64,000 bases of DNA from Armatimonadota bacterium (GTDB taxonomy: Bacteria; Armatimonadota; Fimbriimonadia; Fimbriimonadales; Fimbriimonadaceae). Positions 9,699 through 44,555 of the stretch are shown piece after piece. Location: NCBI GenBank assembly GCA_031400935.1, contig JANNQV010000017.1, forward strand, positions 1 through 64,000, written 5' to 3'. The notes under the pieces are model-generated. The model was not told where the DNA came from and did not search any database. It saw only the letters and a program-made list of their open reading frames with translations. The position numbers and the translations under genes were made by a program. The number at the start of each line of letters is the position of its first letter. The first letter of the stretch is position 1.

Positions 9699-9807
9699 GT
9701 TATTGGTTGTTAGTTGTCGGTTATTAGTTGTCGGTTGTCAGTTTTTGGTTGTTAGTTGTCGGTTGCAGTTATTCAAATCCAAAATCCACAATCTAAAATC
9801 CAAAATG
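9699..9807. repeat. Bipartite heptamer array between rpsL and rpsG: (GGTTGTC/AGTTGTC)n then (AATCCAA)n
   Basis: Tandem 7-mers read directly. Confidence 0.9.
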
Positions 9808-10203: not shown

Positions 10204-10389
10204 TTGTTCTTGGTTGTCGGTTTTCGGTTGTTGGTTATTGGTTGTTGGTTATTGGTTGTTGGTTATTATTGTAAGTTATCAGTTGTAAGTTATCGGTTGT
10301 CGGTTGTCAGTTATTAGTTCTGTGTTGTCGGTTGTCCGCTCTCCGCACTCCGCTCTACTCCGATTCCTCCATACCATCCATACAATTCA
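10204..10389. repeat. Bipartite heptamer array upstream of rpsL: (GGTTGTT/GGTTATT)n then (CTCCGCA/CTCCGCT)n
   Basis: Long 7-mer array at about 10208-10335, then CCGCTCTCCGCACTCCGCTCTACTCCG. Confidence 0.9.
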
Positions 10390-10404
10390 TTCTAGGAGGT
10401 TTTC

Positions 10405-10436
10405 AACAAAAAACCCCTTCGATCTCTCGACAGGGG
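10405..10436 (-). terminator. Terminator-like hairpin upstream of rpsL
   Basis: Minus strand CCCCTGTCGA-GAGA-TCGAAGGGG-TTTTTTGTT. Confidence 0.7.
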
Positions 10437-10552
10437 CGCGGCTTTTTTGAATCTAGCTATGGTTCATTTCTTTGATTCCTGAAAACCTGCCTTTCAGCTG
10501 CCTCCCTCGACGTGACTTGCCCTTCCCTCTCCAAGAGTTCTGAGCAATTCAA

Positions 10553-10582
10553 ATTATGGCGAAGTTGTTGGGAGGTTGTCAA
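10553..10582 (-). promoter_or_regulatory. Sigma70-type promoter pointing into the rpsL leader
   Basis: Minus strand TTGACA-18 nt-CATAAT. Confidence 0.65.
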
Positions 10583-10666
10583 GGGACAGTCCACAGTAGT
10601 CAGCACGATTTGCATTTCTGTGCGCTTCACGTTCTTCACTTAATTTATTCGTCAATTCAAAAATCG

Positions 10667-11416
10667 CTACAACCGATTGATAATTTGCAGTGGAATCATT
10701 GGGCGATCTCCATCTGAAATCACGACGTCTTCAATATCAATCCATTGGTTCCCAACCTTCACCTTTGGGGAACCAAGAGGCATGATAATTGCACCTTGTG
10801 GCCGATTGATCATCGTGCAGGCTGATTGCCTATTGACGTTGATCGAATATCCGCAAATCTCTGACCACCGTTGTGCATCAAGGTGGATTCGAACATTACT
10901 TGCCCTCCGGCTGTTGACACTTTGATTGCCGACAGCGTGCGTTGATGGCGAATATGCTTCTGCCGTTTTTGTTGCCAACATCCAGCGAGCTACTGCTTCG
11001 ACCATTGCGTAATCGCTTTGGTCCACTGGAGACGCTGGTTGAGCGACTCCGTTTACACGCTGATACGAAGTAATAAGGCTAACTAGGACTCGAACCTTGG
11101 AACTTACACATTGGATATCAACGGTGCCAATTCCGGGACTATATCTAATATCTCTGCCGAGCAAAAAGTTTGTGGGCAAGGGGATACCAGGATTATGGGG
11201 TCCGAACGCGCGTGCTGAGCCTCTGTCAACAGTCGATTTCAGAATTCGAGACAATTGATCATCTGGTGTTCGAACTTGATACACACCATTGAAAAGCGTA
11301 TGGTGTCTTTGACGGTTTCGCCAATCGCCATCTTGGTCTCTTGAGAATCCATGGGCGATAATCAGTTGATCATATGGGCTTGTCGTTTGTAGCAAAAGTA
11401 GCACAGAAATGAACAT
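10667..11416 (-). CDS. Hypothetical exported protein with a C-terminal stalk (copper amine oxidase N-terminal-like) domain
   Basis: AAGGAG RBS; short hydrophobic N-terminus; C-terminal IIMPLGSPKVKVGNQWIDIEDVVISDGDRPMIPL pattern. Confidence 0.65.
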   Translation of the reverse strand: MFISVLLLLQTTSPYDQLIIAHGFSRDQDGDWRNRQRHHTLFNGVYQVRTPDDQLSRILKSTVDRGSARAFGPHNPGIPLPTNFLLGRDIRYSPGIGTVDIQCVSSKVRVLVSLITSYQRVNGVAQPASPVDQSDYAMVEAVARWMLATKTAEAYSPSTHAVGNQSVNSRRASNVRIHLDAQRWSEICGYSINVNRQSACTMINRPQGAIIMPLGSPKVKVGNQWIDIEDVVISDGDRPMIPLQIINRL

Positions 11417-11443
11417 TGGGTTACTCCTTTGAATCTTTTATCA

Positions 11444-12859
11444 TTAGCCTGGCGGGAAATAATAGTCGTACCCGTCAATATCAAAAACGACTGGACCTGC
11501 CATGGCAGTTGGTCTCGCTGGGACAGTTGGGTCTGGCAACGCTACGAGAAAGGGATATGGAGGATGGGACTGTTCCGTATCGCCACTGACCACATCGCGA
11601 TACACAAGTCCGTAACTCAAGTTTCCGATCATAGTCTGCCAATAACCAGGCATAGCCCAATTTGCTGCCGGGTTCATATATGTTTGTCCGCCTAGATCCC
11701 ATCGATAAGCCAGAGCGGCATCATGTACAAGACTGCTCGATCTAATAAATTGCTGATGCATAGTGAAGAAAATATGAACGTACAGCCCAGTATCGGCTCC
11801 ATTCGAACCAATAGGAACAACTTTGTTCGTAATGAAAGGTGCTGGTGGATCGCTACCTGACCTGAATAGCTGCTGCAAATCTCCACTAATTCCCAGTGAG
11901 CTTTGTAGAGTAAGTAAGAACGTAGAAACATCAGAACAGTTTCCAGGCTGAATTCCCTCGTCGTACATATGGTTTAGCAACTTGCGCAAGCCGAAAGTTA
12001 CCCCTAAGTCGCTACTGTCTGGGTCGGGCCAATTTACCCAGACGGCACTTACGTCAGGATCACCAAGATTGTAAGCAAAATCGTACGCCCAATAGAGCCC
12101 AAATGTAACGTCGTGAGAAACATCAGTAGGCCCAGCTTTTCCATAGCCGTAATTGCAGGACTTCTCTAACACATCCGTCCATGGAACCGTTTGATGTTCA
12201 ACTGGTGCTTCGTCGGTCAAGTAAAGGCGATAAGTTTCTGTTCCAGTGGAACCAATCGGATCTTGAATAAGGTCAAGTCCTGCGGGAGCCCCGCTAATCG
12301 CAAATAAATGAGAGCCATAGTTCAGCCAACCGAGTGCCACATAATTGGGAACTCCCGTGATTGTAACCGTCACATCGACAGTTCCTCCACTTCCAGGTAT
12401 GGAAACGAAAGTTGGAGCAGCGTTGGTTAAATAGATAGTTTGCGCAGGACGGTCAAAATAGGCAGGCACTTCAAGGCGTGCATTTTCCATCGTTAACGTT
12501 CCAGTAATGGAGCTTGGGTTCTTGTTCGTGAACCTTCGCCTTAAAGTTACTGTTGACCCTCGGCGATAGACAATTCTATCGGTCATTACGGCACCTGGCA
12601 CATAGTTTTGCTCTAAACTAGGATACTGTCCACCACCAACTGGAGGAGATTGTGGCGATCCATCGGGGTTCGAGTAATACCAATACCGGTTTGTAGCTGG
12701 AAAATTACCTGTAAAGTCAACCTGCGTAACGAATACCCACAAATTTGCAGGTGCTAGTGCGACGCACAAAAAGAGAAGAACGAGAACGCTACAGAGCTTG
12801 CCTTGCCTTGCCTTGCCTTGCCTTGCCTTGCCTTGCCTTGCCTTGCCTTGCCTTGCCAT
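11444..12859 (-). CDS. Secreted hypothetical protein with a transglutaminase/papain-like Cys-His-Asp pattern and an SSR in its signal peptide
   Basis: M(ARQGK)4 + LCSVLVLLFLCVALAPA; GNCSDVSTFL...LG, FTMHQQF, VHDAAL. Confidence 0.75.
   Translation of the reverse strand: MARQGKARQGKARQGKARQGKLCSVLVLLFLCVALAPANLWVFVTQVDFTGNFPATNRYWYYSNPDGSPQSPPVGGGQYPSLEQNYVPGAVMTDRIVYRRGSTVTLRRRFTNKNPSSITGTLTMENARLEVPAYFDRPAQTIYLTNAAPTFVSIPGSGGTVDVTVTITGVPNYVALGWLNYGSHLFAISGAPAGLDLIQDPIGSTGTETYRLYLTDEAPVEHQTVPWTDVLEKSCNYGYGKAGPTDVSHDVTFGLYWAYDFAYNLGDPDVSAVWVNWPDPDSSDLGVTFGLRKLLNHMYDEGIQPGNCSDVSTFLLTLQSSLGISGDLQQLFRSGSDPPAPFITNKVVPIGSNGADTGLYVHIFFTMHQQFIRSSSLVHDAALAYRWDLGGQTYMNPAANWAMPGYWQTMIGNLSYGLVYRDVVSGDTEQSHPPYPFLVALPDPTVPARPTAMAGPVVFDIDGYDYYFPPG
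12798..12857 (-). repeat. Perfect pentanucleotide SSR (GGCAA)12
   Basis: 12 exact TTGCC units on the plus strand; starts at the G of the ATG at 12859. Confidence 0.98.
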
Positions 12860-12957
12860 AGCAATATTGTACAGCAATTTTCAGTGGATGTTACACATTT
12901 CTCAAAAAACTTTCAAAATGGACTCTTTTTCCAAGTTTCCTAAGTTGCATCGAAACT

Positions 12958-12966
12958 TGGTACAAT
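12958..12966 (+). promoter_or_regulatory. Extended -10 promoter of rpsB-tsf
   Basis: TG-G-TACAAT immediately before the leader RNA. Confidence 0.6.
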
Positions 12967-12975
12967 GCATCCATC

Positions 12976-13135
12976 TCACACAAGCGTGGAGCGCGATCAG
13001 GTGCCGGGGAGACTCGGAAAGAGAGCGAGCTGCAAAGAGCGGACGGCGGAGAGTGGAGAGCGGAGTCTTTTACCGTTCAATTCCAGACGAAACCGAACCA
13101 ATCCGAACAAAACCCCTACGCTTGAAGGAATAACC
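12976..13135 (+). ncRNA. rpsB 5' leader (t44 / S2 autoregulatory RNA)
   Basis: CACA-CAAGCGTGG pairs with CTACGCTTG (13116-13124); conserved GGTGCC and GGAATAACC elements; lies upstream of rpsB. Confidence 0.7.
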
Positions 13136-13145
13136 TGGAGCATAT

Positions 13146-13964
13146 ATGGCAGAACTCAGCATGAAAGACTTGCTGGAGTCAGGCGTTCATTTTGGACACC
13201 AGACCCGGCGATGGAACCCGAAAATGAAGCGCTACATCTACGGAGCGCGAAACGGGATCTATATTCTCGACCTACACCAAACGATGAAGCTTTTCGAGGA
13301 AGCCCTCGAATTCGTCAAAGGCATCGCCGAAAACGGCGGCAACGTCCTCTTCGTTGGAACTAAAAAGCAAGCCCAAGCCGCAGTTAAAGAAGCTGCTCAG
13401 AAATCTGGAATGTTCTGGGTCAGCGAGCGTTGGCTTGGCGGAACCCTTACCAACTGGAAAACGATTCAGCTTCGAGTGCAAAGACTTAAAGAGCTTGACC
13501 GAATGGAAGCCGAAGGCTATCTTGCGCGACTTCCTAAAAAGGAAATGCTCAAGAGGCTCGAAGAGCGAGCAGAGCTCAACCGATTCCTCGAAGGCATTCG
13601 AAACATGGTTACGATTCCGGAATGCATGGTTGTGATTGACGTAAACAAAGAAGACATTGCGATCAAAGAAGCACGAAAGCTGGGAATTCCTATCGTTGCA
13701 GTAGTGGATACGAACTGCGACCCAGACGTTGTGGACTACGTGATCCCTGGAAACGACGACGCGATTCGAGCCGTAAAACTCGTGACAAGCAAGATCGCAG
13801 AAGTGATTTTGGAAGCTAGGCCGCTAGACGAAGCACTTACAGAAGGCACATTGACCGAAGATGGCGAGATCGCTGAAGACGAAGACAAACCAGTTGAGTT
13901 TGGAGCGGTCGAGCAGGAGTTGCTGCGAGCGTTCGGCGCGGACGAAGTGTTAGAAGGGGTTTAG
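13146..13964 (+). CDS. rpsB: 30S ribosomal protein S2
   Basis: [37 protein letters not shown]. Confidence 0.99.
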
Positions 13965-14068
13965 GGTGTAGGGGTTTAGGGTTTGGGGTCGAGGGTTTAT
14001 AGGTTTTAAGGTTTTAAGGTCTTACAAGTCCAACAAGTCCGACCAAACCACCCCAAAAACCCAACACA
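13957..14068. repeat. Bipartite array between rpsB and tsf: (GGGTTTA)-type G arm then C/A arm
   Basis: GGGGTTTAGGGTGTAGGGGTTTAGGGTTTGGGGTCGAGGG ... ACAAGTCCAACAAGTCCGACCAAACCACCCCAAAAACCC. Confidence 0.85.
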
Positions 14069-44420: not shown

Positions 44421-44555
44421 TAGATGGATTGGATGGGTCGTAGGGTTTGGGGTTTGGGGTTTGGGGTGCAGCCCAATGACCCGACACCCTACCCTATACC
44501 CTGATCCCTAAACCCCAAACCCTACGACCCAATTACCCTATGACCCTTTGAACCC
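44421..44555. repeat. Bipartite array with a perfect 21-bp inverted repeat
   Basis: GGGTCGTAGGGTTTGGGGTTT (44435-44455) and AAACCCCAAACCCTACGACCC (44510-44530). Confidence 0.92.

Follow-up and report, generated by a model that had tools for sequence, protein, structure and literature searches.

A gene for a predicted secreted, transglutaminase-like protein of an Armatimonadota bacterium (Fimbriimonadaceae) carries a perfect tract of twelve GGCAA units that begins inside its own start codon. This tract is likely to be a slipped-strand ON/OFF switch of the type found in the opa genes of Neisseria, and the assembled sequence is in the ON state. The gene lies on contig 17 (JANNQV010000017.1) of an assembly of 2,965,276 bases in 67 contigs, with 48.7% G+C and scored as 95.6% complete; positions 1 to 64,000 of this contig are the stretch that was analysed, called the window here. 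The anatomy of the tract and the arithmetic of its reading frame are established, as are the facts that no start codon offers rescue and that 5' repeats recur among members of the protein family; the support for switching is comparative.

A pentanucleotide array begins in the start codon

The start of the gene has the following features (window coordinates; nt, nucleotides; aa, amino acids; ORF, open reading frame):

11444..12859, minus strand: gene for a 471-aa protein, predicted secreted, of an unnamed family with a transglutaminase-like fold (C308, H368, D380; from searches and a structure model)
12857..12859, minus strand: ATG start codon of the 471-aa ORF; full-length product only at unit numbers divisible by 3
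12798..12857, minus strand: (GGCAA)12, a perfect pentanucleotide array that shares its first G with the start codon and encodes (ARQGK)4
12746..12859, minus strand: signal-peptide coding region, residues 1-38, with M(ARQGK)4, a hydrophobic region (h-region) L22-A36 and a probable cleavage site between APA and NLW
12862..12864, minus strand: TTG in the second frame, 5 nt upstream of the ATG; from the frame simulation, a possible weak alternative start
12866..12871, minus strand: TACAAT, a -10-like hexamer 6 nt (ATTGCT) before the ATG, from a promoter scan
12889..12894, minus strand: GTAACA, a -35-like hexamer at a 17-nt spacer; 9 of 12 matches together with TACAAT

The minus strand reads ...ctgTACAATattgctATGGCAAGGCAA... 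across the start-codon region and GCTCTGTAGC... downstream of the tract; the order at the locus is ...ctgTACAATattgctATG, then GCAAGGCAA.... The initial annotation of this DNA had described twelve perfect GGCAA units starting at the G of ATG 12859, and both direct reading (units from 12857 to 12798, beginning at base 3 of the ORF, all perfect) and Tandem Repeats Finder (12797-12857, period 5, 12.2 copies, 100% matches, score 122) agree with it. The ORF is open over 471 aa from the ATG and begins MARQGKARQGKARQGKARQGK-LCSVLVLLFLCVALAPA-NLWVF; translation also confirms that the 60-nt tract keeps the frame and encodes (ARQGK)4, the basic N-terminal region (n-region) of the signal peptide, as had been proposed.

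The tract is a real and non-random feature. Matches to (GGCAA)4 with up to two mismatches occur nine times in the window, overlapping and every one within the tract, and not once in 100 dinucleotide-preserving shuffles of the window; no second array of (GGCAA)4 or longer is present in the whole assembly. A perfect repeat of non-triplet unit length within the 5' coding region is what characterises opa-type contingency loci. Selection for the ARQGK repeat as a protein sequence was considered and rejected: the 5-nt period is perfect, with no synonymous differences over 60 nt, and the repeat is therefore one at the DNA level.

Unit number determines whether full-length protein can be made

The consequences of unit number were simulated for 4 to 20 GGCAA units. 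Translation from ATG 12859 yields full-length protein (461-481 aa) only at 6, 9, 12, 15 or 18 units, and peptides of 11-46 aa at all unit numbers not divisible by 3; the assembled state of 12 units is in frame (ON). Thus, the earlier statement that gain or loss of one or two units frameshifts the whole protein is borne out. The stretch from the tract to the hydrophobic core contains no ATG, GTG or TTG; the earliest one is a TTG at codon 31, inside the core, and any exportable product must therefore be translated across the tract.

The initial annotation had also excluded an alternative start before the h-region. This holds for the sequence after the tract, but not for the sequence before it: the TTG at 12864-12862 is in the second frame and gives full-length protein if the unit number leaves a remainder of 2 on division by 3. 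This codon could be used only if the transcript starts upstream of it, and its use is hypothetical; with a remainder of 1, neither start codon gives a full-length product. A pentanucleotide repeat encodes the identical cyclic pentapeptide in all three frames, and the n-region would therefore be basic from either start codon. With the second-frame TTG 12864 as a caveat, changes in unit number abolish the full-length product, and there is no rescue from downstream.

The mRNA is probably leaderless

The TACAAT hexamer was found at 12871-12866, 6 nt before the ATG, where it had been annotated. A scan of the region returned 8 promoter-like sites against 3.2 +/- 1.9 in shuffled sequences, and the pair GTAACA-17-TACAAT is weak when taken alone. 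No Shine-Dalgarno sequence or purine-rich stretch is present between TACAAT and the ATG in the sequence read.

Genome-wide, TANAAT precedes the first ATG by 5-9 nt in 114 ORFs of at least 100 aa, with a peak at 6 nt: it ends 5, 6, 7, 8 and 9 nt before the ATG in 18, 38, 19, 17 and 22 cases, respectively, with a background of about 4 for each other distance. The control motif TAANAT peaks at 6 nt too (19 cases); it overlaps TANAAT and is thus not an independent control. From this distribution, leaderless mRNAs would seem to be frequent in the lineage, and the 6-nt spacing of the studied gene is the modal one. With a -10 element within 5-9 nt of its start and no Shine-Dalgarno sequence, the gene probably has a leaderless mRNA, as its sequence had suggested to the first annotators; the genome-wide peak lends this suggestion support.

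A predicted secreted protein with a transglutaminase-like fold

Cleavage of the signal peptide is placed between APA and NLW because the closest homologue (P0002, 56% identical) reads ...TICQA followed by NLWVF. In the AlphaFold model of the protein (mean predicted local distance difference test score, pLDDT, 90.2; predicted template modelling score, pTM, 0.88), residues 1-14 are disordered or of low confidence and a helix at residues 17-34 corresponds to the hydrophobic core of the signal peptide. In those aligned homologues whose N-termini are complete, too, a hydrophobic, signal-peptide-like stretch comes first. A lipoprotein signal was rejected, as the sequence LFLC, read by eye, does not fit a lipobox.

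Sequence models do not place the protein: searches of Pfam and NCBIfam gave no match for it, including to any transglutaminase-core model, sequence searches of the PDB returned nothing relevant, and Pfam searches with 61 family members found no transglutaminase model and only one weak match to He_PIG. A profile search retrieved 1131 cluster representatives with an expectation value (E) of at most 0.001, and the unnamed family is therefore sizeable. Structure comparison does place it. Foldseek matches the model to transglutaminases 2 and 3 and factor XIIIa (E 1.8e-8), and a second structural alignment (Z 12.1, root-mean-square deviation 5.4, 279 aligned residues over model residues 40-463) has exclusively TGM2, TGM3 and factor XIIIa in its top 13 rows (Z 10.3-12.1). 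Like these animal-type transglutaminases, the protein has an N-terminal beta-sandwich followed by the core domain; in contrast to them, its model lacks both C-terminal barrels, and sequence identity is 11-14% with an overall TM-score of only 0.29.

Among the 61 family members, H368 and D380 are invariant and C308 belongs to the columns that are at least 90% conserved. These residues would fit a Cys-His-Asp core, the putative triad being read from conserved columns. The protein resembles a secreted transglutaminase-like enzyme with putative activity, and with its intact ORF, conserved residues and confident model the gene looks functional.

Different repeats at the same place in homologous genes

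A comparison with homologous loci of related genomes and metagenomes, which the initial annotation had proposed, revealed a (GCGGT)9 array and C or G tracts. The metagenome contig L080 encodes a protein (P0096) that is 31% identical to the studied protein over 269 residues; its gene has nine GCGGT units, 100% perfect, that run from the G of the ATG and are in frame, with TACAAG 5 nt upstream. This is the design of the studied locus with a different repeat unit.

Twenty-five homologue loci from related genomes were examined for 5' tracts. Five of these, from three other genera, have C9-C10 or G10 tracts in the 5' coding or signal-peptide region; the remaining 20 have no such tract at the thresholds used. 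Three of the five are paralogues of one genome (G004) with a conserved GAGGAG-TTG start, followed after five codons by C9, C10 and C10. The other two tracts lie between signal peptide and mature domain: C10 in G052 and, in a gene that starts with TATACT, 6 nt and ATG, G10 in G012. In the assemblies, none of the five is in frame with the start upstream of it.

A further case comes from protein sequences: the members of the P0139 cluster (90% identity) have three N-termini, namely MLISPPPRLTHK..., MNKKLNVNLPPPRLTHK... and a start at an internal valine, and are identical beyond. When the frame is moved on by one base, AAT GTT AAT CTC C becomes ATG TTA ATC TCC, and the first two N-termini may thus differ by a frameshift at the PPP (poly-C) tract, with ATGs in two frames. 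Searches for the DNA of this cluster had no hit in 175 family genomes at E <= 1e-60 or in 401 genomes sampled across the phylum at E <= 1e-80. When the first 45 residues of 152 proteins were scanned for N-terminal patterns, 16 were flagged, including the studied protein (P0001) and P0096; three have PPP within the first 8 residues, and in several PPP or GGGG is found close to where the signal peptide ends.

Some further repeats were seen at these loci and in these genomes. In G021, (AGT)6 lies within an inverted repeat GTGAC...GTCAC directly upstream of the GTG start of the homologue (L018 1355-1372); gain or loss of its three-nt units would leave the frame intact, and it might change promoter spacing. 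In G004, a C9 tract follows directly on the TTG start of a membrane-protein-like ORF, in frame with it and behind TTGACA-17-TATAGT and a GGGAGA ribosome-binding site (L072 1001-1009, minus strand; contig 42, 49367-49375). The same genome has about 18 runs of at least nine C or G (up to 28), the genome studied here (G000) has one.

Other outlier repeats of period 2, 4 or 5 are at gene starts

Arrays of period 2, 4 or 5 with more than five copies are rare outliers in this genome: there are only four, all of them promoter-proximal and at or before ORF starts. Those other than the GGCAA array are:

contig 15, 186024-186093 (L081 525-594): (GAGCA)14, perfect, begins at the last G of a GTG
contig 62, 30038-30067 (L082 539-568): (TC)15, in the signal-peptide coding region of a 379-codon frame
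contig 34, 55796-55813 (L083 497-514), minus strand: (TC)9, codons 5-10 of an ORF of about 125 aa, in frame

Genomes with contingency genes typically have several of them, chiefly in genes whose products are exported or displayed at the surface; here there are four arrays, one of them in another signal peptide. This is (TC)15. The only start codons, ATG 29997 and GTG 30006, are not in frame with it, the 379-codon frame has no in-frame start upstream, and the gene has the look of an allele in the OFF phase. In G001, a genome of the same genus, the homologous contig starts about 150 nt downstream of the tract position. The ORF with (TC)9 is rich in cysteine and glycine, and its ATG is 7 nt after TATACT, with TTGACA before it at a 16-nt spacer.

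The GTG of (GAGCA)14 lies 7 nt after a consensus TTGACA-17-TACAAT promoter and opens an ORF of 50 aa; the TGA of this ORF overlaps with the GTG at which a second ORF starts, one of 153 aa for a membrane or secreted protein. Neither this 153-aa ORF nor the product of the (TC)15 gene has a match in Pfam. All three frames through the array close before the 153-aa ORF, so that no long ORF is gated. The array's orthologue in G001 is degenerate; it runs on in frame into a hydrophobic segment, for which it forms the basic n-region.

That the (GAGCA)14 array gates no long ORF directly would speak for the GGCAA tract, too, lying in a 5' untranslated or regulatory region, with translation starting elsewhere and unit number affecting at most transcription or mRNA stability, and the weak alternative promoters upstream of ATG 12859 would fit such an arrangement. 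We nevertheless regard it as very unlikely: no start codon is available between tract and hydrophobic core, a start at the codon-31 TTG leaves a core too short for export, homologues with complete N-termini start upstream of their hydrophobic stretch, and no Rfam family matches positions 10300-13300 at E up to 1.

Sequencing runs that contain the locus

A run search returned seven runs, of which only two (X1 and X2; one study, possibly the source) contain the stretch, with 0.99 of its words; X3 and X4 have only short conserved pieces of it. Both X1 and X2 are labelled freshwater sediment metagenome, consistent with the probably environmental lineage that the initial annotation had assumed. Aligned to 12400-13300, the Logan contigs of these two runs end at 12789 and 12867, while 12790-12866 is masked.

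The unit count of 12 comes from one assembly alone, a perfect 60-nt repeat is difficult for k-mer assemblers, and the Logan contigs break at the tract. Still, an assembly artefact, be it in the tract itself or in its count of units, is extremely improbable: the two runs cover both flanks at a depth of 22-34, and the records run 37-39 letters past the aligned flanks into the masked stretch. Moreover, the same assembly spans perfect arrays of 70 and 91 nt, twelve units keep the 471-aa frame open, and the homologue on the unrelated contig L080 has the same design.

The gene is part of an accessory two-gene cassette

Two features describe the setting of the gene:

10667..11416, minus strand: ORF of 249 aa, 27 nt after the stop codon of the 471-aa gene and preceded by AAGGAG
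10586..12957, no strand assigned: two-gene cassette with its promoter, about 2.4 kb, between rpsL and rpsB; missing from G001

The 249-aa ORF is probably co-transcribed with the 471-aa gene. At its C-terminus there is weak similarity to the N-terminal domain of copper amine oxidase (E 2.2e-4, which does not reach the Pfam cut-off). Weak relatives of this ORF are found directly downstream of the homologous gene at 13 of 29 loci, which correspond to 11 distinct places as two were counted twice. The two genes look like a conserved module of unassigned function. On one side of the cassette lie fusA-rpsG-rpsL and on the other rpsB-tsf, and in G001, from the same genus, the cassette is absent from the syntenic site. 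Window positions 10279-10585 and 12958-13965 align there to 1501-1791 and 1823-2844; the flanks are joined with 31 nt between them, and the cassette is therefore accessory.

Absence of the cassette from G001 would also fit a different explanation of the array, namely a recent and selectively neutral microsatellite expansion in a tolerant n-region, which may slip and switch the gene without any benefit and put it at risk of inactivation. Signal-peptide n-regions tolerate changes in length and sequence, homologues in G020, G052, G036 and G035 have stop codons and may be decaying, and the degenerate G001 orthologue of (GAGCA)14 indicates that such arrays can decay. A neutral process, however, would scatter repeats and not favour one protein family, whereas homologues have independent repeats of other sequence at this position, (GCGGT)9 in L080 and C or G tracts in three genera, and all four outlier repeats of the genome are at gene 5' ends. 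We consider neutral expansion rather unlikely.

The intergenic spacers of the genome, including those around rpsL and rpsB, are filled with heptanucleotide tandem repeats (GGTTGTC, ACAACCA, GGGTTTA and similar); examples in the window are 9699-9806, 10206-10356, 13957-14024 and 44443-44551, among many more, and 425 of the 1503 Tandem Repeats Finder rows of the genome have period 7. These heptamers recall the intergenic heptamer repeats reported for Beggiatoaceae (PMC4679880).

Proposed mechanism of the switch

Under the preferred reading, a slipped-strand switch of the secreted enzyme, the gene would be transcribed from GTAACA-17-TACAAT, with the transcript starting at or beside the A of ATG 12859 and thus leaderless. 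Translation through (GGCAA)12 would yield M(ARQGK)4, which gives a Sec signal peptide its positively charged n-region; the hydrophobic core L22-A36 and the likely cleavage site between APA and N come next. Replication slippage in the 60-bp perfect array would add or remove 5-bp units: at 9, 12 or 15 units, including the assembled state, the transglutaminase-like enzyme would be made and secreted (ON), and at other unit numbers the ATG frame would end after 11-46 codons and no product would be exported (OFF). A transcript that includes TTG 12864 may create a weak second ON state at unit numbers with remainder 2, and the downstream 249-aa ORF is possibly affected through polarity. The benefit could be bet-hedging on a secreted or surface product. 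Slippage, transcription start, secretion and benefit are the steps that we infer.

Several observations weigh against the switch or narrow its support. The k-mer contigs of X1 and X2, the only runs that contain the DNA, break at the tract, and variation in unit number is a prediction. The gene itself is known from one assembly only, and a collection of 5.8 billion clusters yielded four proteins, the closest 56% identical. The transcription start is a predicted one, and two more weak promoter-like sites lie 10-30 nt further upstream; TTG 12864 could blur a strict ON/OFF switch. Among the homologues, an ATG downstream of the tract in the G004 paralogues might start a usable signal peptide, which makes their OFF state uncertain, and homopolymer lengths in the one-contig genome G012 may be sequencing errors. 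The PPP and GGGG N-termini of other family members are hints at the protein level; among these homologues, P0096 is the one whose DNA was examined.

Comparison with known phase-variable systems

In the opa genes of Neisseria, CTCTT units in the leader-peptide coding sequence are gained or lost by slippage, which puts a gene that is transcribed constitutively into or out of frame, according to passages of PMC6803597; as at the studied locus, a pentanucleotide repeat lies in the signal-peptide coding sequence of an exported product (PMC6803597, same passages). The systems differ in that the GGCAA repeat begins in the start codon itself, on a probably leaderless mRNA, in that the product is a transglutaminase-like enzyme and not an outer-membrane adhesin, and in that the organism is an environmental Armatimonadota and not a host-restricted pathogen, with switching predicted here from sequence alone. 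The opa repeats encode the hydrophobic core of the signal peptide. The GGCAA repeat, in contrast, encodes the basic n-region.

In Haemophilus influenzae, phase variation is mainly due to tetranucleotide repeats (PMC2651432). The studied locus shares with these loci a non-triplet repeat at the 5' end of a gene, while unit length, organism and gene products differ. Starts in different frames can grade the states of such loci, and the lic1 locus has ATGs in more than one frame; here, ATG 12859 and TTG 12864 (its use being hypothetical) could act likewise, and the MLIS and MNKKLNVNL N-termini of the P0139 cluster would be a pair of two-frame starts. Poly-G/C tracts cause phase variation in Campylobacter and Helicobacter. 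The homologues in G004, G052 and G012, with C9-C10 or G10 tracts that set the frame in the 5' coding region, are similar to these homopolymeric-tract systems, whereas the studied tract is a pentanucleotide repeat and not a homopolymer. Phase variation by homopolymeric tracts is described for Mycobacterium tuberculosis as well (PMC11898584).

The passages concerned of a 2025 review of phase variation deal with host-associated species (PMC11868660), in agreement with the earlier remark that contingency loci have been described mostly in host-associated bacteria. A full-text literature search found no paper that combines Armatimonadetes or Armatimonadota with phase variation or phase-variable. 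The mechanism is a known one; phylum, protein family and placement in the start codon are new.

A broader reading is plausible, if somewhat doubtful at present: free-living Fimbriimonadaceae of sediment and water, whose phylum has been little studied, may run a contingency-gene system with the secreted transglutaminase-like family as its main target, for which hypermutable tracts right where translation begins, of the types (GGCAA)n, (GCGGT)n, poly-C and poly-G, would have been acquired repeatedly and independently. The pentanucleotide arrays of this genus would then begin inside the start codon of leaderless mRNAs, and the order -10 box, 6-7 nt, start codon and array would be an architecture apparently not described before. 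If true, an array in the start codon cuts the OFF product to a short peptide and doubles as the basic n-region.

What is known of repeat-driven phase variation comes almost wholly from host-associated bacteria, in which it has been interpreted as a response to immune pressure. A set of such switches in an uncultured Armatimonadota bacterium of freshwater sediment would point to comparably fluctuating selection in the environment, for instance by grazers and phages or through what it costs to secrete a public good. As the putative switches are concentrated on one secreted enzyme family and have arisen several times with different repeats, they offer a concrete gene family for experiments. For annotation, genes of this family that appear N-terminally frameshifted or truncated in these genomes may be OFF-phase alleles and not pseudogenes. 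The wider interest lies in the apparent family-wide, convergent gain of 5' repeats in an environmental phylum, together with a probable architecture that joins start codon, array and leaderless mRNA.

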